A stretch of DNA of 64,000 nucleotides from Elusimicrobiota bacterium. GTDB lineage: Bacteria > Elusimicrobiota > Elusimicrobia > UBA1565. Shown here piece by piece: positions 117 to 51,970 of the stretch. Position numbers and translations under genes: made by a program. The notes beneath the pieces are model-generated. The model was not told the origin of the DNA, did no database searches, and saw only the letters and a program-made list of their open reading frames with translations. The DNA lies in NCBI GenBank assembly GCA_043827405.1, contig JBDRPD010000066.1, positions 32,001 through 96,000 of the forward strand, in the 5' to 3' direction. Position 1 is the first letter of the stretch. Every line of letters begins with the position of its first letter.

Positions 117-152
117 AGGTCGCCACACTTTGAGGTGGGTATAATTGAAATA

Positions 153-2093
153 ATGATCCGCGCAATGCTTTGCCTGCTGCTGCTGGGGCAGCCGATTCAA
201 GCCGCCGTTTTGCGCGCGCCCGTGCGGATAAACGCGGGAGCCGGTGTCGCGGGCTCCGCCGGCGCGGCGGTCGGCGCACCGATTTCACCGAGCGGGCTTA
301 CCCGGCAGACCATGCTTAATACCGCAGCGGCCTTGCCCTCGGTCGATTTGCCGAAGACGTCGGTAGCTCCGGCGATCCAAGCCAAAGTCGCAGCGAAGCA
401 GCCCGAGGTCAAGACGGAGGCGCTGCCCAAGGCCGGCGGCGTAGAGACGGGAAGCGCGCGGACGTCGGCGGTCAGGTCCGCGGTGCGCGGCGATAAGAAA
501 GGAGAAAAGGGCGTCCTGCCGGAGGGGGCCTTTGCGGATCATTCCGAGGAATTGACGCGGCCGCGGCCCGGGCTGCTGGGCGCGGGTTTGAAAGCGGCGG
601 CTGATGCCGAATGGATGCGGCTTATGGGTGAGGCGCATAAGCCGCTCAATATTCTCATGGCCGCGGGCGAGGCGTATCCCTTCGTTAAGACGGGGGGGCT
701 GGCTGATGTCGTCGATGATGTCAGCCGCGGCTTGGCCGCTCGCGGCCATCATGTCACTCTCGTGCTGCCGAAATACGCGGATATCAGCGAGGAGCAGTTC
801 GGCATGAAGCGCCTGCCCGGCGCCTTCGGCGTTCCTGTCGGAGATCATGTCGAGACCGCGCGGCTGTGGCGGGCGGAGCATGAAGGCGTAGAGGTCTTAT
901 TCGTTGAGAACGAGGAGTATTTCGGCCGCCGCGGCGCCTACGGGCATATGGGCTACGATTATGTGGACAATGACTCGCGCTACATTTTCCAATCGCGTGC
1001 GACGCTGGAAGCGGTGCGCTTCCTCGAGCGGCAGGTGGATGTGGTGCATGTGCACGACTGGCAGGTCGGGCTCATCCCCGCCTATCTCAAACTGATCTAC
1101 AATGCGGATCCGCTGTTCTCCGCTGCGCGTTCGGTGATGACCATCCACAATTTGGCGTATCAGGGATTTTTCCACAAGGACACTTTGCTGCGGGCGGGCT
1201 TCTCCATGAAGGACTATACGTTCGATAAGCTGGAGTATTATGGGAACTTCAGCTTCCTCAAGGCGGGCCTCGCCTTTGCCGACGCGCTCACCACGGTGAG
1301 TCCGACCTACGCTAAAGAGATTCAGACCGAGGAGTTCGGTCACGGCATGCACGGTTTGCTCAGTAATCGCAAAAAGGACCTCGTCGGGGTTCTTAACGGG
1401 ATTGATTTGGACGCTAATGATCCGCGTACCGACAAGGTGCTGGAGGAGCAGTACGGTTCCGATACGGTCGCGAGCGGGAAAGCGAAGAACAAGGCCGCGC
1501 TGCAGCAGGCGTCGGGGCTGGCGGTGGACCCGGGGGTTCCGATCTTCGGCGTCGCTTCCCGGCTGGCAGGGCAGAAGGGGATTGACCTGATCGCCGAATC
1601 GATCGACAAGATCGTCAAACTCGGCGCCCAGGTTTACATTATCGGCTCCGGCGAGTCGGACCTTGAGGACGCGATTGACCGCATGGTGCGCCGATTTCCG
1701 AAGAACGTGCACCGCCACGGCTTCGACACGGCGTTTGTGAAAATGGTTTACGCCGCGAGTGATTTTCTGCTTATGCCGTCGCGCTTCGAGCCTTGCGGGC
1801 TGTCGCAGCAGCTGGCCCAGCGTTATGGGACTTTGCCTATCGCCAGCAGGACCGGCGGTCTCGCCGATACGATAATCGACGTGAGAGATAATCCGCGGCG
1901 CGGCGACGGTTTCTTCATCCGCGACCTTACCGTTGCCGCCATCGTGGAAACGGTTAAAGACGCCATCGCACACTTCCGGAACAAGAAAGTGCTGGCCCGT
2001 TCGCGCCGCGTCGCCATGCTCAAGAACATGTCCTGGGAGAGTTCCCTGAACCGCTACGTCGACCTTTACCGCAGTCTCCTGTCCCGGGAATAA
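153..2093 (+). CDS. glgA: Glycogen synthase (GT5) with ~165-aa N-terminal signal peptide/low-complexity extension
   Basis: KTGGLADV ADP-glucose motif, HVHDW, TIHNLAYQG, MPSRFEPCGLSQ, RTGGLADT. ORF track starts at 108; ATG 153 preferred because it lies 7 nt after TATAAT and begins a signal peptide. Confidence 0.93.
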   Translation: MIRAMLCLLLLGQPIQAAVLRAPVRINAGAGVAGSAGAAVGAPISPSGLTRQTMLNTAAALPSVDLPKTSVAPAIQAKVAAKQPEVKTEALPKAGGVETGSARTSAVRSAVRGDKKGEKGVLPEGAFADHSEELTRPRPGLLGAGLKAAADAEWMRLMGEAHKPLNILMAAGEAYPFVKTGGLADVVDDVSRGLAARGHHVTLVLPKYADISEEQFGMKRLPGAFGVPVGDHVETARLWRAEHEGVEVLFVENEEYFGRRGAYGHMGYDYVDNDSRYIFQSRATLEAVRFLERQVDVVHVHDWQVGLIPAYLKLIYNADPLFSAARSVMTIHNLAYQGFFHKDTLLRAGFSMKDYTFDKLEYYGNFSFLKAGLAFADALTTVSPTYAKEIQTEEFGHGMHGLLSNRKKDLVGVLNGIDLDANDPRTDKVLEEQYGSDTVASGKAKNKAALQQASGLAVDPGVPIFGVASRLAGQKGIDLIAESIDKIVKLGAQVYIIGSGESDLEDAIDRMVRRFPKNVHRHGFDTAFVKMVYAASDFLLMPSRFEPCGLSQQLAQRYGTLPIASRTGGLADTIIDVRDNPRRGDGFFIRDLTVAAIVETVKDAIAHFRNKKVLARSRRVAMLKNMSWESSLNRYVDLYRSLLSRE

Positions 2094-11740: not shown

Positions 11741-12949
11741 ATGATGATCTTCAGCAGGCAGACGCTCGAAAAGTACGCCGATGTGATGCTTTGGGGGCTT
11801 GAGACCGCGCGTAAAGGCGGTCGGCTTAATCCCTATGAGGCGGTCATGCTGCGTTATGATCCCGCGGCCCTGCCGCTCGCCGAAGCCGTGCACCGCCGGC
11901 TGCTGAAGCGGCGGCTGAACGTGGTCCTGCGCGCCGGCGCGAGCCCCGATATGGAGAAGGATTTTTATCAGCTGGCGGACAACCGGCAGCTCGCATTTGT
12001 TGATAAAGGGCAGAAGGAACTGGTCGAGAGCCTCAATGGATATATCGCGCTGATCGCTCCGACTTCTCTGACCCACCTGAAGGGTGTCGAGCCCCGGAAG
12101 TTCGGGGTGAGCGCTCTGGCGCGCAAGTTCCTGAAAGATATCTTTGATAAGAGGGAGGCGGCGGGACGCTTCAGCTGGACTCTCTGCATGTATCCGACCG
12201 AGGAACTCGCCCGGCAGGCGGGCATCTCCATCCGCAAGTTCGCCGAGCAGGTGGAGTGCGCCACTTTCATCGATCAGCCTCGTCCAGTGGAGAAATGGAA
12301 GCTGATCTTCCGGCAGAGCGCGCGGATCAAGAAAGGGCTCAACTCGCTGCCGATCGAGACGCTGCATATCCGCTCAAGGAATATCGACCTGAAAGTCCGA
12401 CTCGGAGAGAAACGGCGCTTCGTCGGCATCAGCGGCCATAATATCCCTTCGTTCGAGATATTCACTTCACCGGATTGGCGGGGGACGGAGGGCGTGTACT
12501 ATTCGGACCTGCCGTCCTTCCGGACCGGCAACCTCGTCAAAGGTGTGCGGCTGCACTTCAGGAAGGGACGCGTCGTCAAAGTCACCGCGACGAAAGGCCA
12601 GGAGTACGTGCGCAAGACGCTGAAGACCGATTCCGGCGCCTGCCAGCTAGGAGAGTTCTCTCTGACCGACCGCCGCTTCTCGCGGATCAGCCGGTTTATG
12701 GCCAATACTTTATTCGACGAGAACTTCGGCGGGCGCAACGGCAACTGCCATCTCGCCGTGGGCAGCGCCTATGCGGAGACCTTTACCGGGAGTTCCAAGA
12801 CGCTTACGCCGGCGCTGAGGAAGCGCCTCGGCTTCAACGACTCCTCCGTGCACTGGGACCTCGTCAACACCGAGGATAAGGTCGTAACCGCAGTACTCAA
12901 AGGCGGAGAGACTGTTACGCTCTACGAAAAGGGGCAGTTTAGAGTCTAG
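11741..12949 (+). CDS. Aminopeptidase, peptidase M29 family
   Basis: NIPSFEIFTSP, GEFSL, TLFDEN, HLAVGSAY, SSVHWD motifs. Confidence 0.9.
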   Translation: MMIFSRQTLEKYADVMLWGLETARKGGRLNPYEAVMLRYDPAALPLAEAVHRRLLKRRLNVVLRAGASPDMEKDFYQLADNRQLAFVDKGQKELVESLNGYIALIAPTSLTHLKGVEPRKFGVSALARKFLKDIFDKREAAGRFSWTLCMYPTEELARQAGISIRKFAEQVECATFIDQPRPVEKWKLIFRQSARIKKGLNSLPIETLHIRSRNIDLKVRLGEKRRFVGISGHNIPSFEIFTSPDWRGTEGVYYSDLPSFRTGNLVKGVRLHFRKGRVVKVTATKGQEYVRKTLKTDSGACQLGEFSLTDRRFSRISRFMANTLFDENFGGRNGNCHLAVGSAYAETFTGSSKTLTPALRKRLGFNDSSVHWDLVNTEDKVVTAVLKGGETVTLYEKGQFRV

Positions 12950-14976
12950 CGTCCGGCGCCGGTGTAGATATCCCGGCGGATTTGGGCCAGTAGTTCCTTG
13001 TAGTGCTGCTGCAGGGGGTCCGGCTTGTCCAGCAAGCGATCGAGCAGCTTCTGCGGGCCCGCATACGTCGTTCCCTCCGCGTCGATCACATAAGCCCGGG
13101 TCGCCGGATCCGAGTCGGTATGCCCGATCATGATATTGTCGGCGATATGCACATCCTCGGGCACCTTAATGCGCAGCTTGACCAGCTTGGCAAAGAGGGA
13201 TTTTACGAGCTCCAAGTCGGCGCTTGAGACGTTGCGCAGCGTCTTCCCGCGCACCCGTTCCTGCACGAGATAAGAAGTGTTCCACTCAATCCCGTTCTGG
13301 TCGCGCAGCAGCATGCGGCCCGCGCTCAGCGGCATGGGTGCGGTCATCTTATGCGGCAGCAGCAGCTTGCGGCCGTCAAGCTCGCCTTTCCGCGTCAAAC
13401 GGCTGACCGCCGTCGCCTCCGATATCTCCGCTGCCTGTTGGGCCTTGGTCAGGTATTTGAAGTTTTTTGGGCTTTTCTTGGGGAATATCGTAAGCAGGTA
13501 ATTCGGGAAGTTGGGATGCACGAAGAGCATCTTCGAACCGCTGCCGTCGAAGTATTCGAGAGGACGCCCTGCAAAGTAATATCCCTCCGTATGTCCGGGG
13601 CCTCTATGCTCCACATGGCCGACGAGAAGCGGATCGTCCGCTGGATTCATTGCCGGAGGGGCGCGGCTGCGTCCATCCTTCTGCGCGCCGGGTGAAGGGA
13701 CGCCCTTGCGCGCGGCGAAGCGGCGGTAGACGTCGCGGAAATTCGCCTGGAGATCGGAGGGCAGCAGAGCAAAGTGCGCGTTATCCATCAAGGGCTTAAG
13801 GAAGCCGGCCGTACCGTCGAGGATCATCTCGTCCGTGGGATTCTCCGATTTGGCGGCCGTGCGCAGCTCGTTGGCCAAGCCGCGTACCGCGCGCTCGGCA
13901 AAATCTCCCGTATCCAGATACATCGCCGTCTGGTCGGTATAGGCCAGGAGCCTGCCCAGCGCGATCCACTTGGGGGCGAGATCGGCGCCAAAGTGCGTTC
14001 TCGCCATAGCTTCGGCCTCGTTTTGCATCTTGGCCATCTCGTCCTTATTCAAGCTGAAATCGGTGAATTTGATAAGAGTCTTGAGCTGCCCGCGGCCGCG
14101 CTCGCCCAGGCCCAGTTGCGCCAGGAGGGCGCCGATATCCGGATCCTTGTCGATGTTCCGCAAGGTCGCCGTAACGCGCGCCGGGGTATTGGGCGCGCGC
14201 TGGGGATCGATATCGTGCAGCGCCCCGGCGACCAGAAGCAAAGCCTTTTCCGCCGGGGTGAGCTTCAGCGCGGCGCCGGCGGGGCTGTCGATGATCGCCG
14301 CCAAAGTGTTGGGTACGCGTACGGAATGGCTCGCGTTGTGATAGATATTCTTCTGGCTTCCGGGGTGCGTCACCTTCATGATATTGAGCAGGCGCGTGAG
14401 CGGTACGCGGCCGACGCCGTAGCCCATAAGGGAGCGGGCGAAGCTGCGCTGGCCGCCGCCGTTGGCCGCTCCGCCGCCGAAGCCCGAGGGAGCAATACCG
14501 CTTTCCAGGGCGGTCACGCCGCCGGTCTTCCCCTCGCGCAGATCTCCGCCGTCAAAGAGCTTATGACTGACGGCGGCGGACTTCTCGCTGCCGCCCTTTT
14601 TTTCGGCCTTAATCCTGCCGGTGCCGTCCTGAACAGTTTTTAAACCCCGTTGGAATTGCGCACTGCCGATCTTGAGTTCAGCGGGAGCGGTTTTTAGTTT
14701 CTGCCCTGCCGCGTTGATCGCCATGTCCTTGGGCGCGTTGAGCTGCGTATTGATCCCGCCCACGGAAGGCAGCCGCCCGCCGTCAAGCGTCGGAATCCCG
14801 AGACCGCCCGGCGTGTTGAGCGCCGTATTCGGCGTAGTCAACGCAGCGCCGGCGCCGCCGGCGCCGCCGATATTCGCTTTGGGGACAGGGACTTCAAGAA
14901 CGATAGCGGCTTGCAGGGATAGAGGAAAAACCAGGGGCAGGAACAGGCTGATTAGAGGCGGTGTTCGAGATATCAT
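12946..14976 (-). CDS. Hypothetical exported protein: signal peptide/low-complexity leader + HD-like domain + protein-kinase-like C-terminus
   Basis: Signal peptide from ATG 14976 (GGAG upstream; ORF track starts at 15063); YHNASHS..LHDID..TDQ HD pattern; YLVQERVRG..EDVHIADNIM..YVIDAE kinase-like pattern. Confidence 0.65.
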   Translation of the reverse strand: MISRTPPLISLFLPLVFPLSLQAAIVLEVPVPKANIGGAGGAGAALTTPNTALNTPGGLGIPTLDGGRLPSVGGINTQLNAPKDMAINAAGQKLKTAPAELKIGSAQFQRGLKTVQDGTGRIKAEKKGGSEKSAAVSHKLFDGGDLREGKTGGVTALESGIAPSGFGGGAANGGGQRSFARSLMGYGVGRVPLTRLLNIMKVTHPGSQKNIYHNASHSVRVPNTLAAIIDSPAGAALKLTPAEKALLLVAGALHDIDPQRAPNTPARVTATLRNIDKDPDIGALLAQLGLGERGRGQLKTLIKFTDFSLNKDEMAKMQNEAEAMARTHFGADLAPKWIALGRLLAYTDQTAMYLDTGDFAERAVRGLANELRTAAKSENPTDEMILDGTAGFLKPLMDNAHFALLPSDLQANFRDVYRRFAARKGVPSPGAQKDGRSRAPPAMNPADDPLLVGHVEHRGPGHTEGYYFAGRPLEYFDGSGSKMLFVHPNFPNYLLTIFPKKSPKNFKYLTKAQQAAEISEATAVSRLTRKGELDGRKLLLPHKMTAPMPLSAGRMLLRDQNGIEWNTSYLVQERVRGKTLRNVSSADLELVKSLFAKLVKLRIKVPEDVHIADNIMIGHTDSDPATRAYVIDAEGTTYAGPQKLLDRLLDKPDPLQQHYKELLAQIRRDIYTGAGR

Positions 14977-18277: not shown

Positions 18278-19303
18278 GTGAGACATCCTCTGCCGTTGTT
18301 TCTGCTGGCTGCCATGCTGGTCGTTCCGCGGGCTCATGCCCAGGAGGGACCGGGCACGACCGGGGCCAACTTCCTGAAGATCGGTGTGGGTGCACGGCAG
18401 GTCGCGATGGGCGAGGCTGTCGTGGGCATCGCCGATGATGTTAATTCTATGTTCTACAACCCTGCGGGGCTTGGGATGCTGACGCGAAAGGAAGTCTCCG
18501 TGATGCACAACAGCTATATCGAAGGTCTGCGTCAGGAGGTCGGCGCGATGGCGTTTCCGACGCGGCACTTCGGGACCCTCGGCCTCGGTCTCAATATGCT
18601 CAAGGTGGAGGAGTTCGATTCGTACGACACTTTGGATCAGAAAGTCGGCTCTATCGATGCGCAGGATATGGCAGCCAATGTCTCCTATGCCATTGAGATT
18701 GGCCGGCTGCGGCGGGTCTCGGTCGGCGGAACAGCGAGGTTCTTGCGCTCGCGTCTCGATACCTATACGGCGAGCGCCACTATGTTCGATATAGGCATTT
18801 TGGCACGCTACGGTCTCGAGGGGGCGTACGAGAAGCGCTACCGTCTTGGCGCTTCGGTTCGAAATTTGGGCCAAGACCAGAAGTTCATCGGCCAGCCTTT
18901 TAAGCTCCCCCAGAGCCTGCATGTCGGCGGCAGCCGCGACGCCCCGCTGCCCCACCCTTTCGAGGATATGCGCAACATCATCTCGCTGGAAATGGTAGTG
19001 CCCAACGACGACATCCCTTATGTCGCTACGGGCCTGGAGTTGCGCATCGTCAAAGAGTTCGCGATCCGGGTGGGCTACCGCACGGGGCAGGATTTGGGAT
19101 TCGGCTTGACCGTGGGGTTCGGCTTCACCTCGCTGCACCGGGGCTTTGTCCCCAAATGGGTGCCCGAGGTTTCTATGGACTACGCTTTGGTAGACTATGG
19201 GCTGCTGGAGCAGGCGCACCGCATCGGTTTCTCGATGCGGTTCGGCAGCGACAAGTACATGCTGGATGAATTCGACTCTTTATTCGACCCGACGCAGGAT
19301 TAG
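18278..19303 (+). CDS. PorV/PorQ-family (FadL-like) outer-membrane beta-barrel
   Basis: Signal peptide; GTTGANFLKIGVGARQVAMGEA and YNPAGL family motifs; beta-strand pattern. Confidence 0.85.
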   Translation: MRHPLPLFLLAAMLVVPRAHAQEGPGTTGANFLKIGVGARQVAMGEAVVGIADDVNSMFYNPAGLGMLTRKEVSVMHNSYIEGLRQEVGAMAFPTRHFGTLGLGLNMLKVEEFDSYDTLDQKVGSIDAQDMAANVSYAIEIGRLRRVSVGGTARFLRSRLDTYTASATMFDIGILARYGLEGAYEKRYRLGASVRNLGQDQKFIGQPFKLPQSLHVGGSRDAPLPHPFEDMRNIISLEMVVPNDDIPYVATGLELRIVKEFAIRVGYRTGQDLGFGLTVGFGFTSLHRGFVPKWVPEVSMDYALVDYGLLEQAHRIGFSMRFGSDKYMLDEFDSLFDPTQD

Positions 19304-19312
19304 AGGCAGGTT

Positions 19313-21604
19313 ATGAGCAAACGCATATGCATGGTGCTGTGGGCGATACCTATACTACTAGCGTTGTGCGGTCGCGCACACGCGCTTTTCACGCCCGCCG
19401 CCACGGCTTCGTCGGGGACCGTGCCGTCGGGACTAATATACCAGGGTCGCTTGGAGGACGCCGGCGTGCCGGCCGCAGGCCTTAAGAATATGGTCTTTCG
19501 TCTATACGACACGGCTTCCGGCGGCACGCCGCTTTGGGACAGCGGGACGCAATCGGTGAGCGTTAATGGCGGCGTTTTCGGGGTCGTGCTGGATATTCCT
19601 CTGGGCGCGCTTGCGGGCAAGAAGCAACGGTACATTGAGCTTATTATTGAGGGTATTACGCTAACGCCGCGCGACCCGCTGCAGAGCGTGCCCTACGCCA
19701 AGATCGCGCAATCGGTTGAGGGGTCGATTGAGATCACCGGGGGCGGCTTCACGCTGTCGAACGCCGATGGCCCGATCCTGCATGTCGATTCGGCCACGGC
19801 GCAGGTCGGCATAGGTACGGATACCTTTTCCGGGGCGGGGATCAAGCTGCAGACGCATGGCGGCGACGTCGTTATCGGCAGCCCGGCGATGGTGGGCGGC
19901 ACCAGCGATGACGATTTGTTTGTCGAGGGCAACCTCAGCGTCGACGGTCAGGTGTCCTTCCAGGGCGCGAGCTTCGCCGACTTGGGGGTCGCGACGAATA
20001 CCAATACCGGGGAACTGTTTAAGGTAGGAGAAGGGACTTTTACGGTGCTCACTACGGGCCGCGTCGGTATCGGCACGAACAACCCCGGGGGGACCCTCGA
20101 TGTGGACGCCGGCGACGTGCCGGGCATCCTGCTCCAGCATGCGACCCGGCCGCAGATCAAGCTGCAGGCCAATCATGTGGATAAGCTGGTGCTGGAGCAT
20201 GATGGTTCGGTAGGACGCGTTAACGCCCTGACTTCGGATCTCGTGCTGGAGACCAACAGCAGCGAGGTCATGCGTCTTGAATCCGGCGGCAATGTCGGCA
20301 TCGGCGGCGCTCCCGGGGCCTTTAAGCTGGATGTGACGGGAAGCGTCAATATTTCGGGCGGGCTTACTCTGGGAACGGATCTGCCGCTCGGGTCCGGCGG
20401 GACAGGGGCTTCGAGCGCGGGGGCGGCGCAGACAAATCTCGACGTGCCGTCGCGCAGCGGCCAGAACGCCTCCGGCAGCTGGACCATCAATATCGTCGAT
20501 GTCGGCGGAGGCACCACCGGCAATGCCGCCAAGGCCGCGGCGCTGAGCGCCGCGCCGGCGACCTGCCTGGTCTCGGGACAGTTCGCCAAGGGCATTCAGG
20601 CCGACGGCGACGCCATCTGCGTCGACGTCGCCAGCGAAATCCCGGAGACCGGCATCGAGGATATTATCTACGACAATGACAACAATCTGACGACGATCGG
20701 CGGCCCTTGGGGAGTCGAGGCGTCGGGTACCAATGATATCAACTTCGACAAGACCGATAATACGTTCTTTATTGATGTGAGCCAGAATTATGTCGGCATC
20801 GGCACCAACCTGCCGAACGATAAGCTTGATGTACAGGGCGGGGACATCAATACCAGCGGCAAGATTCGCGAGGGCGGCAATGAGCTGGTGCCGGCGGGGA
20901 TGATTTTATTCTTCAATCTCGCTTCTTGTCCCGCCGGCTGGACCGAGCTCGCGGTGGCCAGCGGCCGGGCCATCGTCGGCAAGGTGCCGGCGGGGACGCT
21001 GCTCGGGGTGCCGCCGGGCATAGCGCCTTATACAAACCTGGAGGACCGTGCGCATACGCATGATATGCAGAACCATAAGCATACGGTGGACCCGGATAAC
21101 GGGACGCCGCATTCCCATGGCCCCGGAACCCATACCCATTCGGTCGATCCCGGCGGAAACCATAATCATACGGTCGCCGATCATAACCATTCCGTGGATC
21201 TAGGCAATCATAACCATACAGGACCGAACCATCAGCATGGATTCGATGTTCCCGGGTCTTGGTCTGGCGGGCCTAGTGGGAATGTGAATGTCGGTGGTGG
21301 TGGTACCGATGTCGGTAGTGGTAGCCATGGCCATTGGGTCGACCCAGGTGCGGGGACTTCGGGTTGGGGCGGCAACGGGAATACCAGCAATCACAACCCC
21401 GATCCGGTTACTAGCGGTGATGCCGGTTCGGGTAATACAGGAGATTATAATCCAGGAAGCGTGGCTAGTGGCGCCCCGAGCGCAAACAATACAACAACAA
21501 CCGACTTGGCACCGGTGCAGTCGGGCAATCCGAGCACGAATACGACGGGCTCGACCAGCCATACCCTGCCGTACATACAACTGCTGGTATGCGAGAAGAC
21601 TTGA
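19313..21604 (+). CDS. Exported phage-tail-fibre-like adhesin (paralog 1)
   Basis: Signal peptide; YQGRL..FRLYD..SVPYA N-domain; VGIGT repeats; collar-like VPAGMILFF..CPAGW; nine HxH motifs; ends LPYIQLLVCEKT. Confidence 0.8.
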   Translation: MSKRICMVLWAIPILLALCGRAHALFTPAATASSGTVPSGLIYQGRLEDAGVPAAGLKNMVFRLYDTASGGTPLWDSGTQSVSVNGGVFGVVLDIPLGALAGKKQRYIELIIEGITLTPRDPLQSVPYAKIAQSVEGSIEITGGGFTLSNADGPILHVDSATAQVGIGTDTFSGAGIKLQTHGGDVVIGSPAMVGGTSDDDLFVEGNLSVDGQVSFQGASFADLGVATNTNTGELFKVGEGTFTVLTTGRVGIGTNNPGGTLDVDAGDVPGILLQHATRPQIKLQANHVDKLVLEHDGSVGRVNALTSDLVLETNSSEVMRLESGGNVGIGGAPGAFKLDVTGSVNISGGLTLGTDLPLGSGGTGASSAGAAQTNLDVPSRSGQNASGSWTINIVDVGGGTTGNAAKAAALSAAPATCLVSGQFAKGIQADGDAICVDVASEIPETGIEDIIYDNDNNLTTIGGPWGVEASGTNDINFDKTDNTFFIDVSQNYVGIGTNLPNDKLDVQGGDINTSGKIREGGNELVPAGMILFFNLASCPAGWTELAVASGRAIVGKVPAGTLLGVPPGIAPYTNLEDRAHTHDMQNHKHTVDPDNGTPHSHGPGTHTHSVDPGGNHNHTVADHNHSVDLGNHNHTGPNHQHGFDVPGSWSGGPSGNVNVGGGGTDVGSGSHGHWVDPGAGTSGWGGNGNTSNHNPDPVTSGDAGSGNTGDYNPGSVASGAPSANNTTTTDLAPVQSGNPSTNTTGSTSHTLPYIQLLVCEKT

Positions 21605-21621
21605 TTAGGTAGATCGAGATA

Positions 21622-23967
21622 ATGAAGCGTGTCGGACATATTCTAATTCTGCTGAGCGCGGCCCTGATATGCGCCGGGGCGGTCCGGTATGCCGCGGCCA
21701 ATTACCGTCCGAGCATGACCTACGATACCGGGACCGTGCCCGGCGGCATCAACTTCCAGGGGCGCCTGGCGAATGACGGCACGGCGGTTACCGGTCAGCG
21801 CAATCTCGTGTTTCGGCTTTACGATGCGGCCGAGGGAGGCACCTTGCTGTGGCAGAGCCTGCTGCTTTCGACTCAGTTCGAAGAGGGTATTTTCGGCGTC
21901 ACGCTCGATATCCCCACCGACGCGCTTATGGGCGCGGGCATGAAGTATCTCGAGTTCGAGGTTAACAATATTATCCTGCTGCCGCGCGAGCCGCTGCGCC
22001 CCGTCCCCTATGCCCGTATCGCCGAGGTCGTCGAAGGCTCGATCGATATTTCCAGCGGCAGCCTGGCGGTATCTACCGCCGCTTTGGACGGCAATGCCAT
22101 CTACGCCTCTTCGGCCGCCGGGTCGGTCGGCTTCGGCACTACGCAGACGCAAGCCGGACAGATTATGCGGGTGGATGCCGGGGATTGGTCCGTGGGTTAT
22201 CCGACGAACAGTAATCCCTCGGCCCAAGAGGATATTTTCATTGAGGGGAATATCGTTATCGGCGGCATCCTGATCGGCGGTCCGGGATTCAGCAACCGGG
22301 TGGAGCTGCTCGTGGTCTCGACCGAGACCAATTCCGGCGAGCGTGCCAAGATCGGCGAAGGCTATCTCACCGTGCTCGACAGCGGCCGGGTCGGGATCAG
22401 TTCAATCACGCCGGGCGCGCCGCTGGGCATCGACGCCAATACGGTGCCGGCGGTGCAGCTTAATCATGCGACGCAGTCCCAGCTTCGCCTCACCCGAGCC
22501 GGCAGCTCCCGTCTGGTCGCGGAAGGCGGTGTTTCGATTTCGACGCTGGGCACGGTCGCGGCCGATGATCTGATCCTGGAAGCGAACAGCGTCGAGGTGC
22601 TGCGGGTCACCTCCGGCGGACGCGTCGGGATTAGCTCGGCGGTTCCCACCGCCGCCCTCGGGGTCGAGGGCAGCGCTAATGTCTCCCTGGGGGCGACTCT
22701 GGGAACGCCGCTGGCGGTCGTCAACGGCGGCACCGGCGGCGCGACCGCGGCGGCCGCCCGGACGGCCTTGGACCTCCCGTCGCGTACCGGGAGCGACGCC
22801 TCCGGCAGTTGGGCGATCGATATCGTCGCGGGGACCGCGGGAACCGGGTCCGCGGCGACCTTCGACGCCTATGTCGCCGCTCCGAGCGTATGCGCGACGG
22901 CCTCCTACTTCTCGACCGGCATCGCGGCCAACGGCGACGCGGTGGGATGCGCCTACAGCGCGGAGAGCGCCGATCTTTCGGAGGCCAGCGTGGAGCCGGT
23001 GATCTACGATAATGACAATATCCTGCGCAGCCCCTGGGAGGTCGCCTCCGCGGGAGCCTATGATATCTTTTTCGACTCCCCGACCTTCTATATCGACGTC
23101 TCGGCCAACCGGGTCGGCATAAGCACGCGGGTGCCGCCCTATACTTTGCATGTCGAGGACGGCGATATCGATACCAGCGGCAAAATCCAGGAAGACAACG
23201 CCGATCTGATCCCCGCCGGCGCGATCACCTTCTCGACGATCCCGGCGGGCTGTCCGTCCGGCTGGTCGGAGTTTACGGCGGCGCGCGGTTTTATGATCGC
23301 CGGCCTGCCCGGTATGGTCGTGGGCTCGCCCGCCACCGGTACGCCGGGTGGGGCGGTCGGCGTTGCGTTGGGAGATCAGGCGACCTTGACCACGCATGCG
23401 CATGATCTCTCGAATCATACCCATACCTTCGATACCCCGGCGCACTCTCATACTCCGGGCGTCCATTCGCATCAGTGGAGCGCAGGCGTTAGCCATAACC
23501 ATACCATTAGCGATCATCAGCATTGGTCGGATCCTATTGGGAACCATCAGCATAGTGGGCCTAGTCACACGCATTCTATGGATCCTCCATGGGATGATCT
23601 TCCAGACAATGATGATACCTTTCGCGTGGGAGGCAGTGCGTGTAGCCCGGCAAACTGCCCAGTAGTAATTAGTGATCACTGGCACGGTTATGATGCAAGT
23701 AGTTTGACTTCAGATGCCGGAGGAACAGGTAATACCGGGTTGACCGATCCGGGCGGCGCAAATTCCAGCTCGGACGGATCGGTCGGTACCGGCAACTCCA
23801 ACTACATCCCCGGCATCGCCACTTCAGGCGCGCCGAGCGCGAACAGTACCGATACTGAAACGATGAGCGGGACTTCCGGCGGGCCGGATGGGGGGCTTAA
23901 CACCACGAGCACGGACAATAATCCGACCGCTCCCTACCTGCAGCTTTGGGTCTGCCAAAAGACCTAA
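21622..23967 (+). CDS. Exported phage-tail-fibre-like adhesin (paralog 2)
   Basis: Colinear with 19313..21604: FQGRL..FRLYD..PVPYA, VGISS repeats, IPAGAITF..CPSGW, nine HxH motifs, ends APYLQLWVCQKT. Confidence 0.8.
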   Translation: MKRVGHILILLSAALICAGAVRYAAANYRPSMTYDTGTVPGGINFQGRLANDGTAVTGQRNLVFRLYDAAEGGTLLWQSLLLSTQFEEGIFGVTLDIPTDALMGAGMKYLEFEVNNIILLPREPLRPVPYARIAEVVEGSIDISSGSLAVSTAALDGNAIYASSAAGSVGFGTTQTQAGQIMRVDAGDWSVGYPTNSNPSAQEDIFIEGNIVIGGILIGGPGFSNRVELLVVSTETNSGERAKIGEGYLTVLDSGRVGISSITPGAPLGIDANTVPAVQLNHATQSQLRLTRAGSSRLVAEGGVSISTLGTVAADDLILEANSVEVLRVTSGGRVGISSAVPTAALGVEGSANVSLGATLGTPLAVVNGGTGGATAAAARTALDLPSRTGSDASGSWAIDIVAGTAGTGSAATFDAYVAAPSVCATASYFSTGIAANGDAVGCAYSAESADLSEASVEPVIYDNDNILRSPWEVASAGAYDIFFDSPTFYIDVSANRVGISTRVPPYTLHVEDGDIDTSGKIQEDNADLIPAGAITFSTIPAGCPSGWSEFTAARGFMIAGLPGMVVGSPATGTPGGAVGVALGDQATLTTHAHDLSNHTHTFDTPAHSHTPGVHSHQWSAGVSHNHTISDHQHWSDPIGNHQHSGPSHTHSMDPPWDDLPDNDDTFRVGGSACSPANCPVVISDHWHGYDASSLTSDAGGTGNTGLTDPGGANSSSDGSVGTGNSNYIPGIATSGAPSANSTDTETMSGTSGGPDGGLNTTSTDNNPTAPYLQLWVCQKT

Positions 23968-50134: not shown

Positions 50135-50170
50135 ACCGGCATCGCGGGCGCCATAAGTAGAATGGTAGCT

Positions 50171-51970
50171 ATGAGAAAACCGATTTCGCTTGTCCTATGC
50201 GCCGCAGTTTTTCATCTCTCCTTAGGGCCCGGGACGGCGCAAGCTGCCGTTGCGGTAGCGGCCTCGATCAAGGCCGCCTCCGTCAGCGGGAGCGCAGGTG
50301 CGGTCGGAGCTTCCTTGAACCTTCCCGTGCCGCATAACCTGCTTGGGACCGGGGCGGGGGGGATAAAACTGGATATCGGCTCCACGCTGTACCGTCCGGA
50401 AGCTGTCGCGGCGGTCAATGGCATAAAATCGTTGCGGATAATGACCCCCGCCAAGGCGGTTTCGTCGGTGCGTGAGATGGCGGGACGAAGCGCCGCCGGC
50501 AAGATGCCTGAGGTTTCGGTGCGCGGCACGCTCGCAACAATGGGATCTGCCGTTCAACAGCAGGATGGAGCGCGGCCGTCGGGCACCTCCGCCAAGATGC
50601 AGTTGGATAAGCTGTGGGACTTTTCCCGGCGCCGCGATAATACCTCGCCGGTCAGCGCCGGCAAGGGCTGGATGCAAAGAGGCTTCTCCTCTCTCGAGAT
50701 GAAGAAAGGCGAGACGGATGCGGATTTGACTTTCAGCGCGGCCGCCAAGAAGAAAGCTCCCCAGGTTTACGAAAAGAAGCCGGGACAGCTGCGGCGCATG
50801 CTTGTGCTTCCGGCGGCTATGGCGGCAATTGCCGGCCTGCCCAAGCTGTTGAATTTGATACTTGATCATCCCGCGCTGCAGGCCCATATCGGCCGGTTTC
50901 TGACGGTCATGACGGCTATGCCGGGATGGCTGCAGACGGGACTGACCCTCGGCACCGGCTTCGGCGCGGCCTGGGTTTTGCCCAAGCTGGTGCGCGCGGT
51001 CGGTAAATGGCTGTTTAACCAAGTGGATTGGGACGAGCTGCGTGAATCCTATCTCGTGAACCTCGCCTCGGCCGCCGCTTGGCTAGGCGCTATCAGCTTC
51101 GCTGTCTATACGCTTGGCGGCTTCGCCGCCCTCGGCGTCAATGCCGGTTTATTCGCGGCCACCATGGCTCTCGCCAACCAGGATTTGGCGAAGAACCTCG
51201 CGTCGGGTCTTCAGCTCTACCGCAACCGCGAGTTCGAGTTCGACTTCGATGATGAGATCACGCTATGGGGCGAGAAGGGGCGGCTGGAGTCGATCAATAT
51301 CCGCTTCCTGACTCTGGACACGAGCATGAATCCCGACGCGGCGTACAACAGCGTTATGATGGCTAATGAAAAGGTCCGCGGTCTTGGCCTTACCAATCAC
51401 AGCAAGGTCGGCAGCAAGGTCGGGCTGCTCGCGGCGGCGGCGCTGCCATTGGCGGCGCTCGCTCCTTTCTTCCCGTATCTCGCCATCGCCGGGCTGTGGC
51501 TGGCCGGCGGTCTGTCCAAGGAGTGGGCACAGAGCATCCAGCTGAAAGCGGAAAAGGCCCTGCCCGATCGCGAGCGCTACAAGAAGCTGCGCGCTCGTTC
51601 GCGGCTGGTCGGCTGGGGCGCCAACGCTTCCTACGTTGCCGGCCTTGGCTATATCCTGAAGCTGCTCGGAGTGTCCGTCTCGGGTGTTACCTCCGTCGTC
51701 GGCATCCTGTCGGCAGCGGCCGGCTTCTGGACCAAGGAGATTGCCGACGACCTCGTGGCCGGTCTGATGATCGCCGTTTGGAGACCCTTCGGCAAGGGAG
51801 AGGTCGTCCAGATCGGTAAACATCCGCGGGGCATGGTCGAGACCATTACTCCGCGGACCATCCGCCTGCGTCTCGATGACGGCTCGGCGCACTTCGTCCC
51901 GTTGGCGGATTTGATGAAGGAAAAAATCCTGATTGGGCTTAAGCCTGTCTCAGTCGCGAACGCTGGCTAG
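50171..51970 (+). CDS. Membrane protein with two MscS-like modules and a signal peptide/low-complexity leader
   Basis: ANQDLAKNLASGL..GRLESINIRFL and KEIADDLVAGL..PFGKGEVV..GMVETITPRTI; start 50171 or 50162. Confidence 0.75.
   Translation: MRKPISLVLCAAVFHLSLGPGTAQAAVAVAASIKAASVSGSAGAVGASLNLPVPHNLLGTGAGGIKLDIGSTLYRPEAVAAVNGIKSLRIMTPAKAVSSVREMAGRSAAGKMPEVSVRGTLATMGSAVQQQDGARPSGTSAKMQLDKLWDFSRRRDNTSPVSAGKGWMQRGFSSLEMKKGETDADLTFSAAAKKKAPQVYEKKPGQLRRMLVLPAAMAAIAGLPKLLNLILDHPALQAHIGRFLTVMTAMPGWLQTGLTLGTGFGAAWVLPKLVRAVGKWLFNQVDWDELRESYLVNLASAAAWLGAISFAVYTLGGFAALGVNAGLFAATMALANQDLAKNLASGLQLYRNREFEFDFDDEITLWGEKGRLESINIRFLTLDTSMNPDAAYNSVMMANEKVRGLGLTNHSKVGSKVGLLAAAALPLAALAPFFPYLAIAGLWLAGGLSKEWAQSIQLKAEKALPDRERYKKLRARSRLVGWGANASYVAGLGYILKLLGVSVSGVTSVVGILSAAAGFWTKEIADDLVAGLMIAVWRPFGKGEVVQIGKHPRGMVETITPRTIRLRLDDGSAHFVPLADLMKEKILIGLKPVSVANAG

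Follow-up and report, generated by a model that had tools for sequence, protein, structure and literature searches.

An order-wide N-terminal leader of Elusimicrobiota as a candidate Sec-dependent delivery tag

The window studied here is a stretch of 64,000 nucleotides (G000:C66:32001-96000) from the genome of an Elusimicrobiota bacterium of the UBA1565 lineage (G000; 4.33 Mb, 63% G+C, 98% complete). Named proteins most closely related to its GlgA also come from Elusimicrobiota. It encodes a glycogen synthase (GlgA), an HD-type protein and a tandem-MscS protein that all start with the same kind of leader, and we find that this leader is real and order-wide, a putative and undescribed export tag on cytoplasm-type enzymes and transporters. 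We lean towards explaining it as a Sec-dependent tag that directs proteins into a host or prey cell, probably by way of a locus that encodes a giant protein and a large ATPase; judged by its sequence, this locus is a plausible delivery machine for the tag. A search of the full-text literature, with subscription journals mostly outside it and supplements not covered, returned no description of tag or locus.

A hidden Markov model (HMM) was built from the three window leaders and iterated on the N-termini of long open reading frames (ORFs) with reversed decoys. Two rounds gave 52 proteins in G000; one Tat-type protein was dropped, leaving 51 core members. Iterations 3-5 gave 37 further, weaker hits, of which 18 were retained by eye (69 members in total) and 19 were dropped as drift into generic signal peptides. 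The leader is built from a signal peptide, a GAAGA box, an LPS box and an Ala/Pro/Ser-rich linker, often with a terminal Φ-x-x-Φ-F-D-G (FDG) motif. In the consensus, a basic n-region and an h-region are followed by often PGxGxY, AxA, a V-rich strand, GAAGAAG, about 20 residues and L-x-S-V-L-P-S. The linker is A/S/P/T/V-rich, D/E-poor and nearly Cys-free; the low-complexity leaders contain 2 Cys in 9,660 residues.

The terminal motif is strongly enriched: [FW]D[GN] is found at residues 96-200 in 30 of the 69 members versus 47 of 1,799 control ORFs, about 29-fold odds, and the hydrophobic residues at -4, -1 and 0 of the motif form one helix face. A short class of signal peptide plus FDG among other secreted proteins was sought and rejected, as FDG is not enriched there (18/434 signal-peptide proteins vs 55/2,042). 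On some membrane and AAA cargoes a second ending, an amphipathic helix with L/I-L-T/M-G-R, replaces FDG (in G000 at C50:59163, C91:14841, C91:25008, C35:11433 and C49:35910).

When a member's own cargo cluster is left out, 49 of the 51 core members score above the best decoy (12.2 bits among 20,494 reversed or shuffled N-termini), a test that is slightly favourable because alignment columns and decoy threshold were taken from the full set. The window GlgA, HD and MscS proteins then reach 25.5, 16.3 and 30.3 bits, and at the level of sequence the resemblance of the three leaders exceeds chance. Their scores fall to 13.4, 4.1 and 5.9 bits (decoy 12.0) once the n/h part of the signal peptide is removed, thus part of the family signal stems from the signal peptide; of the 51 core members, 29 still exceed the decoys when the signal-peptide core is taken out. 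The mean column identity among leaders is 22%. NCBIfam, searched with 49 leaders, and the ESM Atlas, searched with the MscS leader, returned no family. By eye, neither a lipobox-type start among the members nor a recurring neighbour gene beside them was seen.

The earlier note on this DNA had proposed a modular tag on unrelated cargoes from three proteins, to be checked by a motif search of the proteome and of relatives. The tag indeed recurs, on 69 proteins in 55 clusters by cargo BLAST in G000, and a profile of 49 leaders matches 75 of the 86 genomes of the order with 1-43 matches each, where at most 43 candidates were scored per genome. Some profile-negative genomes of the order have divergent leaders on inspection. 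In a 251-genome sample of the phylum, the leader is present in 17 of 20 own-order genomes, while outside the order weak matches, one or two per genome (E 5e-5 to 9e-4), are confined to 12 of 231 genomes. Among them is a full-length leader with signal, linker and FEG in genome G227. A search of 50%-identity representatives gave 65 leader hits, 24 from G000, and a few unrelated Gly-rich proteins; hits are few because a short low-complexity model is weak at that scale.

A simple rule for signal peptides (basic n-region, hydrophobic h-region, small residues at -3/-1) accepts all three window proteins and 58 of the 69 members, compared with 596 of the 2,829 other proteins. In 29/69 members a TAnnnT box stands 5-8 nucleotides ahead of the signal-peptide start, versus 5/315 downstream in-frame ATGs, and dicodon scores of the leader are coding-like in 65/69. 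Translation therefore most likely includes the leader, and a start downstream of it, which the earlier note had named as an objection, is not favoured. Such -10 boxes, which suggest leaderless mRNAs, are about 3.6 times as frequent for tagged genes (29/69) as for other crudely called genes (389/3,316). The PGxxY-type signal is commoner on cargoes with several transmembrane (TM) segments (16/21 vs 16/48, P=0.0015, with paralogues that are not independent).

Pfam names 43 of the 69 cargoes, and 26 are without a match. The named cargoes include GlgA, two amylases, adenylate kinase (ADK), PPK2, uridine kinase (Udk) and cytidine deaminase (Cdd), an RNase R-like protein, endonuclease I (EndA), EEP and PLD. 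Two Clp ATPases, LonB, MoxR, a vWA/TPR/DUF58 protein, HD, HD-GYP and Fic form another part of the list, peptidases are represented by M3, M28, M48, M50, S8, S41, DegP and CAAX, and membrane proteins by six MFS, SDF, an ABC exporter and MscS. Pattern searches recovered the catalytic motifs of ADK, PPK2, both Clp proteins, MoxR, M3, PLD, HD-GYP and GlgA; the patterns used missed Udk, Fic and the Lon Walker A. ADK, PPK2, the two Clp proteins, MoxR and GlgA are thus tagged enzymes that depend on ATP, polyphosphate or ADP-glucose and retain their catalytic motifs. The MoxR protein and its vWA/DUF58 partner are adjacent and both tagged. NCBIfam, run on 33 sequences, left the unannotated cargoes nameless.

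Many tagged enzymes are duplicates. Leaderless paralogues exist in G000 for GlgA, ADK, PPK2, RNase R, Clp, MoxR, Udk, Cdd, M3, SDF, ABC and vWA/DUF58, and all ten that were tested fail the signal-peptide rule; in G000 none was found for LonB, Fic, EEP, M28, S41, MscS and two MFS queries. Among the 69 members Pfam finds no ankyrin, F-box or U-box. Together with the ADP-glucose-type GlgA, MscS, MoxR and PPK2 this points to a prokaryotic target, and a host or prey cell would most likely be a prokaryote, as far as the cargo sequences tell.

The GlgA family illustrates the duplication. Four relatives (G002, G015, G019, G188) hold two GlgAs, the second with and the first without leader, a comparison that leaves out G181 from outside the order. 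Among 116 scored of 120 GlgA hits, 44 have long leaders, and these form, with three N-truncated forms, one clade of 47 leaves with support 1.0 (FastTree, midpoint root). A hydrophobic signal is present in 40 of the 44 long forms, and FDG lies next to the enzyme in 31. The window GlgA belongs to the other 13, in most of which a helix of the A-D/E-x-W/F type closes the leader.

All three ORFs and the motifs quoted for them in the earlier note are present, including QA↓A and the Gly/Ala motif in each leader. The window GlgA gene (153-2093, plus strand) has the -10 hexamer TATAAT at 140..145, 7 nucleotides before its ATG, which would be a leaderless-mRNA arrangement. The rule-based signal peptide (residues 1-17, 153..203) ends in IQA↓A, with QA↓A at residues 16-17. 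It is followed by the GAAGA box AGAGVAGSAGAAVG (residues 28-41, 234..275) and the LPS box, LPSV (residues 61-64, 333..344), both placed from sequence and family alignment. The low-complexity linker (345..647) ends in an ADAEW helix (residues 150-154, 600-614) directly before the enzyme, which takes the place of FDG in this subtype; the AFAD at residues 126-129, earlier taken for a weak equivalent, is probably not one. The cargo (648..2093) is an ADP-glucose-type glycogen synthase with KTGGLAD, HDW and PSRFEPCGL intact, and Pfam confirms its GT5/GT1 domains.

The HD protein is encoded on the minus strand (14976-12946), with GGAG 7 nucleotides upstream of the start. Its leader has a rule-based signal peptide (residues 1-23, 14908..14976) ending in LQA↓A (QA↓A at residues 22-23), a GAAGA box GGAGGAGAAL (residues 37-46, 14839..14868), an LPS box with the same LPSV as in GlgA (residues 69-72, 14761..14772), and KLFDG at its end (residues 139-143, 14548..14562). 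The cargo (12946..14400) was described as HD/kinase-like. The HD-type phosphohydrolase part stands (YHNxxH...HDxD, with a weak Pfam HD match below cut-off), and the kinase-like label of the C-terminal domain rests on degenerate motifs read by eye (DVHIADN, IDAEG); no Pfam or NCBIfam model matches that part.

The tandem-MscS gene (50171-51970, plus strand) has a -10 hexamer TAGAAT at 50158..50163, also 7 nucleotides before the ATG. The rule-based signal peptide (residues 1-25, 50171..50245) has a PG-type c-region and ends in AQA↓A (QA↓A at residues 24-25); the GAAGA box is SGSAGAVGASL (residues 39-49, 50285..50317), and KLWDF ends the leader (residues 147-151, 50609..50623). The cargo (50798..51970, plus strand) contains two MscS-like units of TM and beta-domain, the second confirmed by Pfam and PDB and the first seen by eye, as Pfam gives one MscS beta-domain. 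A basic stretch precedes its first TM segment. Both the HD and the tandem-MscS protein are rare, with 4 hits each in a 5.8-billion search (the HD count includes itself). Elsewhere in the window, 18278-23967 (plus strand) holds a PorV-like barrel gene and then two paralogous secreted proteins of about 770 residues without Pfam match; Rfam and tRNA scans of the window gave nothing.

The topology of the membrane cargoes is informative. In all six MFS cargoes there is no segment of TM strength between the signal peptide and TM1 (maximum Kyte-Doolittle value 1.32). The N-terminus of MFS proteins is cytoplasmic, so the leader should lie on the cytoplasmic face; yet a cleaved signal places it in the periplasm, which conflicts with residence in the inner membrane of the producer itself. 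In addition, the most hydrophobic TM segments are less hydrophobic in 23 tagged polytopic proteins than in 245 leaderless ones (median 1.14 vs 0.32, P=1e-4). A PDB sequence search with an MFS cargo found nothing.

Two leader members are giants without Pfam hits, at C22:34432-50739 (5,435 residues) and at C99:25740-37823 (4,027 residues, a weak member). In the C22 giant, residues 2560-3030 are modelled as an outer-membrane beta-barrel (predicted local distance difference test 68.5), best matched to OpdQ (VIA Z 18.2, root-mean-square deviation 4.0 over 270 residues). Residues 3030-4130 form, in an AlphaFold model (predicted TM-score 0.69), six hairpin-helix-helix repeats matching TolC, with Foldseek probability 1.0 and a TM-score of 0.60-0.65 over TolC chains. 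ESM Atlas gives OEP/TP096X clusters (0.95, recognition value just below threshold) and Pfam gives OEP only at E=0.49. As modelled, the six TolC half-repeats are the equivalent of the trimer within a single chain. About 1,200 coiled-coil-like residues precede the barrel/TolC part, and TM segments lie near both ends of the protein.

Upstream of the giant gene are a Y1-transposase-like/helix-turn-helix (HTH) gene, a 3,018-residue ATPase and at least five unannotated genes. The ATPase has a PG-type signal peptide and the motifs I, II, III, V and VI of superfamily 2 (SF2) in SecA-like order (MKTGAGKT, GDEMD, FSGT, GRGLD, QAQGR), and motifs I/II/III/VI recur, each in several divergent syntenic copies. 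The SecA_DEAD profile does not hit it; an hhalign comparison with the organism's own SecA is collinear, with probability ~6% and E ~0.006. PDB sequence searches with the TolC-region and ATPase profiles found nothing. Several of the unannotated genes encode proteins that start with a basic N-terminus and a signal anchor, continue in a Gly-rich linker and have hydrophobic hairpins at the C-terminus, following TPY. An unannotated family of this build, ending in TPY plus hydrophobic hairpins or in Cys-rich helices, is seen at G000 C22:67160-73127, C22:32945-34435, C1:47371-48801, C1:76349-78205 and C108:79738-81357. G157 and G013 share this gene order, and G304, G299, G303 and G312 show it with divergent copies. 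The Y1-transposase-like domain is fused to a DnaA-type HTH (G000:C22:50879-51733; L227:83-934, minus) and sits in the same place, just upstream of the giant gene, in G000, G157, G013, G227, G304, G294, G311, G299, G269 and G312; a domesticated and conserved regulator seems likelier here than a mobile element.

Giant, ATPase and leader have similar distributions. Among the 20 own-order genomes of the 251-genome sample, the giant is found in 17 and the ATPase in 18, and G227 has all three; giant and ATPase are found in 0/79, 0/20 and 0/70 genomes of three large other families. In 75 of the 86 order genomes the barrel/TolC segment is present, its long matches being 36-62% identical; outside the order it is found only in G227 and, distantly, in family f8. 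The ATPase profile matches 74/86 order genomes and 4/231 others.

We suggest that export could proceed in two steps, as the earlier note had proposed; two-step export, possibly into another cell, may well be correct, as it fits the cargo list and the candidate conduit. First, the cleavable signal peptide would bring the protein through Sec into the periplasm. Second, a dedicated apparatus would read the GAAGA and LPS boxes, which would lie exposed, together with the F-D-G-terminated helix, all kept apart from the cargo by the cysteine-free, acid-poor, flexible linker. This apparatus might consist of the leader-bearing giant of 4,000-5,700 residues, with coiled coil, barrel and a single-chain TolC-like duct in its predicted fold; the signal-peptide-bearing SF2/SecA-like ATPase of ~2,400-3,100 residues, which would work where ATP exists; and the Gly-rich proteins with C-terminal hydrophobic hairpins as putative pore-formers. 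Third, the cargo would end up in a host or prey cell, most likely a prokaryotic one, either in its cytoplasm or in its inner membrane. Nutrients could be mobilised there by the nucleases, proteases, amylases and nucleotide-recycling enzymes, and the MFS/SDF/ABC/MscS proteins could let solutes out; the window GlgA, HD protein and tandem MscS would be three such cargoes. More tentatively, it can be speculated that members of the order live as contact-dependent predators or parasites and use a secretion system not yet described, in which a single giant combines TolC-like duct and barrel, an exported SecA-like ATPase acts inside the target, and a PEXEL-like tag installs 40-70 enzymes and 12-TM transporters in the cytoplasm or inner membrane of another microbe.

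Several observations weigh against delivery through this locus. The shared distribution amounts to about two independent lineages, family f8 has distant homologues of giant and ATPase without leader matches, and seven leader-positive genomes have no giant match. In G008, which has 21 leader matches, the giant gene stops after ~364 codons; the orthologue (L077, G008:C12:29312-32773) adjoins a HipA-like gene, and the break may be true or an assembly artefact. A within-order correlation between leader number and ATPase (P ~1e-5) was withdrawn, since the locus persists in the "negative" genomes, where its copies and the leaders are divergent; it is a sensitivity artefact from divergence. FDG-like strings in the hairpin proteins of the locus do not beat decoys. 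The kinship of the ATPase with SecA is at motif level only, with no PDB match. Given its TM segments near both ends, the giant may span the envelope as a scaffold and not serve as a cargo duct, and a duct of TolC width would be too narrow for any but unfolded chains. Different families are mixed in the hydrophobicity comparison (the MFS-only control has n=1), and the positive-inside charge ahead of MFS TM1 is mixed. Finally, G000 with its 4.3 Mb at 98% completeness is not a reduced parasite genome.

Part of the cargo list also fits another explanation, namely that tagged proteins stay with the producer, outside its cytoplasm, be it in the periplasm, in an energised inter-membrane compartment, in vesicles or on a surface anchor. 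The leader would then be comparable to MafB-N and APD1/2, the tagged enzymes would work on material that is taken up or is lysed at the surface, and the giant would serve as a scaffold. We find this rather unlikely, although the 58 Sec-type signal peptides agree with it and many cargoes are ordinary secreted hydrolases; several (EndA, S41, DegP, S8, M28) are normally extracytoplasmic, which also counts against delivery into another cell. PPK2 and ADK could make ATP locally from polyphosphate, and the accessible text of PMC3482391 provides a precedent for lineage-specific anchors after the signal peptide. However, ATP, ADP-glucose and RNA substrates would be required outside the cytoplasm, the MFS/ABC/MscS topology would have to be inverted, and the leader is non-globular, with members lacking a lipobox-type start by eye. 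The rare, fast-turnover cargoes such as HD and MscS, and the 26 cargoes that Pfam does not name, resemble an effector repertoire more than a pathway.

The conflict in topology would vanish if the hydrophobic N-terminus were not a working export signal and instead tethered proteins to the cytoplasmic face of the producer's membrane or of an internal organelle. All cytoplasmic cargoes would then remain in a cytoplasm, some h-regions are proline-rich (for example in the window HD protein), and the accessible text on Atribacter laminatus lists 34 genes with N-terminal extensions on cytoplasmic proteins (PMC7736352). This explanation appears improbable to us: basic n-region, h-region and AxA are kept over 44 GlgA orthologues and hundreds of unrelated cargoes, the same leader is found on the outer-membrane barrel/TolC protein and on periplasm-type hydrolases, which must be exported, and the tagged enzymes are duplicates, while the Atribacter examples are core cell-process genes such as FtsZ. 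That the likeness is compositional, with ordinary signal peptides, Ala/Pro/Ser/Gly-rich, possibly O-glycosylated spacers and FDG as a junction or processing site without routing role, is very improbable, since the low column identity, the 29 of 51 core members and two O-antigen-ligase/TPR genes of G000 that could be protein O-glycosyltransferases are set against boxes ordered at fixed spacing, an FDG enrichment absent from other secreted proteins, an order-restricted distribution and an export of cytoplasmic enzymes that it leaves unexplained.

The inventory of secretion systems in G000 comprises one SecA (Pfam), a sporadic second SecY, three secretins and a phylum-wide Tad cluster. FlhA/SctV, TssC and VirB4, core genes of the type III, VI and IV systems, have no match in the 98% complete genome, while the same searches are positive in control genomes. 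The second SecY (G000:C66:14697-15962, L134; 36% identical to the main copy) was rejected as a partner, as it stands alone and occurs in 3/21 genomes; with one SecA and a second SecY not clustered with substrates, G000 does not resemble an accessory Sec (SecA2/SecY2) system. Tad/Flp was likewise rejected as a specific partner: RcpC is present in 207/251 genomes of the phylum and thus uninformative, and a role as contact device is possible. The number of PilB/PilT-type ATPases, about 17 by sequence, suggests a contact-dependent lifestyle. The genome also encodes >20 receptor-type Ser/Thr kinases, and a second cluster resembling type II secretion/type IV pili, with two O-antigen-ligase/TPR genes, lies at C66:106761-123252. 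For type IX secretion, the search for the translocon SprA (SprA_N) had no match in G000 and none in the control genomes. FlgD_ig/CHU_C had no hit among the 69 members; proteins with such C-terminal domains exist in G000.

The known type III, IV and VI injection routes mostly do without Sec, and two-step routes that use Sec usually lead no further than the cell surface. If our explanation is true, dozens of cytoplasmic enzymes and polytopic transporters share a Sec-dependent tag, a design different from the known injection routes, and a widespread order is recast as host-interacting. The order has been described as free-living heterotrophs (accessible text of 10.1101/765248; PMC9476967), and the UBA1565 bacterium whose genome was obtained from a non-axenic culture of an amoeba as an aerobic, auxotrophic heterotroph (PMC9476967); in the accessible text of 10.1101/765248 "secret", "signal peptide", "predat" and "pili" do not occur.

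With TolC-family outer-membrane factors and type I secretion, the giant shares the TolC fold. However, here six half-repeats are in one chain together with a separate barrel and a coiled coil, and the cargoes carry an N-terminal Sec-type signal plus tag, whereas type I substrates have no Sec signal and a C-terminal one. Pfam finds no ABC/MFP family among the 8 locus genes scanned, in a locus that runs off the contig end. A functional analogy exists to Plasmodium PEXEL/PTEX and oomycete RXLR-dEER, where a signal peptide plus a short motif marks unrelated soluble and membrane cargo and a pore and an ATPase act beyond the first membrane; those systems are eukaryotic, with another motif and no homology.

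Closer in kind are APD1/APD2 of Amoebophilus and MafB-N of Neisseria, where, in the accessible text, a conserved element follows the signal peptide on diverse cargoes of one lineage, including SecA-like helicase domains for APD (PMC3482391). MafB-N is described there as globular and APD as following a lipobox, and both are proposed surface anchors (PMC3482391). Here too, a post-signal element unites diverse cargoes within a lineage, but it is a non-globular tag of ~150 residues after a signal peptidase I-type site, on duplicates of housekeeping enzymes and on polytopic transporters, and has no globular domain and, by eye, neither a lipobox nor a recurring neighbour gene like the upstream partner MafA of those anchors. 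If only the tag holds, it is a case within this theme of lineage-specific post-signal domains; a fully new kind depends on delivery into another cell.

Atribacter also has cytoplasm-type proteins with unusual N-termini in a poorly known phylum; its extensions are 10-73 residues long, on core cell-process genes such as FtsZ, and the accessible text describes no shared multi-box tag (PMC7736352). Chlamydia trachomatis exports its glycogen synthase to the host cytosol, according to the accessible text of PMC3722199, while here it is an extra GlgA copy that bears the Sec-type leader, and the search of G000 for a type III export gate had no match. Finally, Omnitrophota giants bear signal peptides/TM segments and contain GT5 glycogen-synthase and other cytoplasm-type domains as well as divergent SecA DEAD domains, which is read as predatory or host-dependent in the accessible parts of 10.1101/2023.11.21.568195 and 10.64898/2026.06.07.730766; there, "TolC" does not occur in the former and "motif" does not occur in the latter. 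In contrast to those giants with fused cargo domains, here separate genes share a tag and the giant is barrel/TolC-like. Why Omnitrophota and Elusimicrobiota place glycogen synthases and SecA-like domains behind export signals is now testable through a tag, a motif and a candidate machine.

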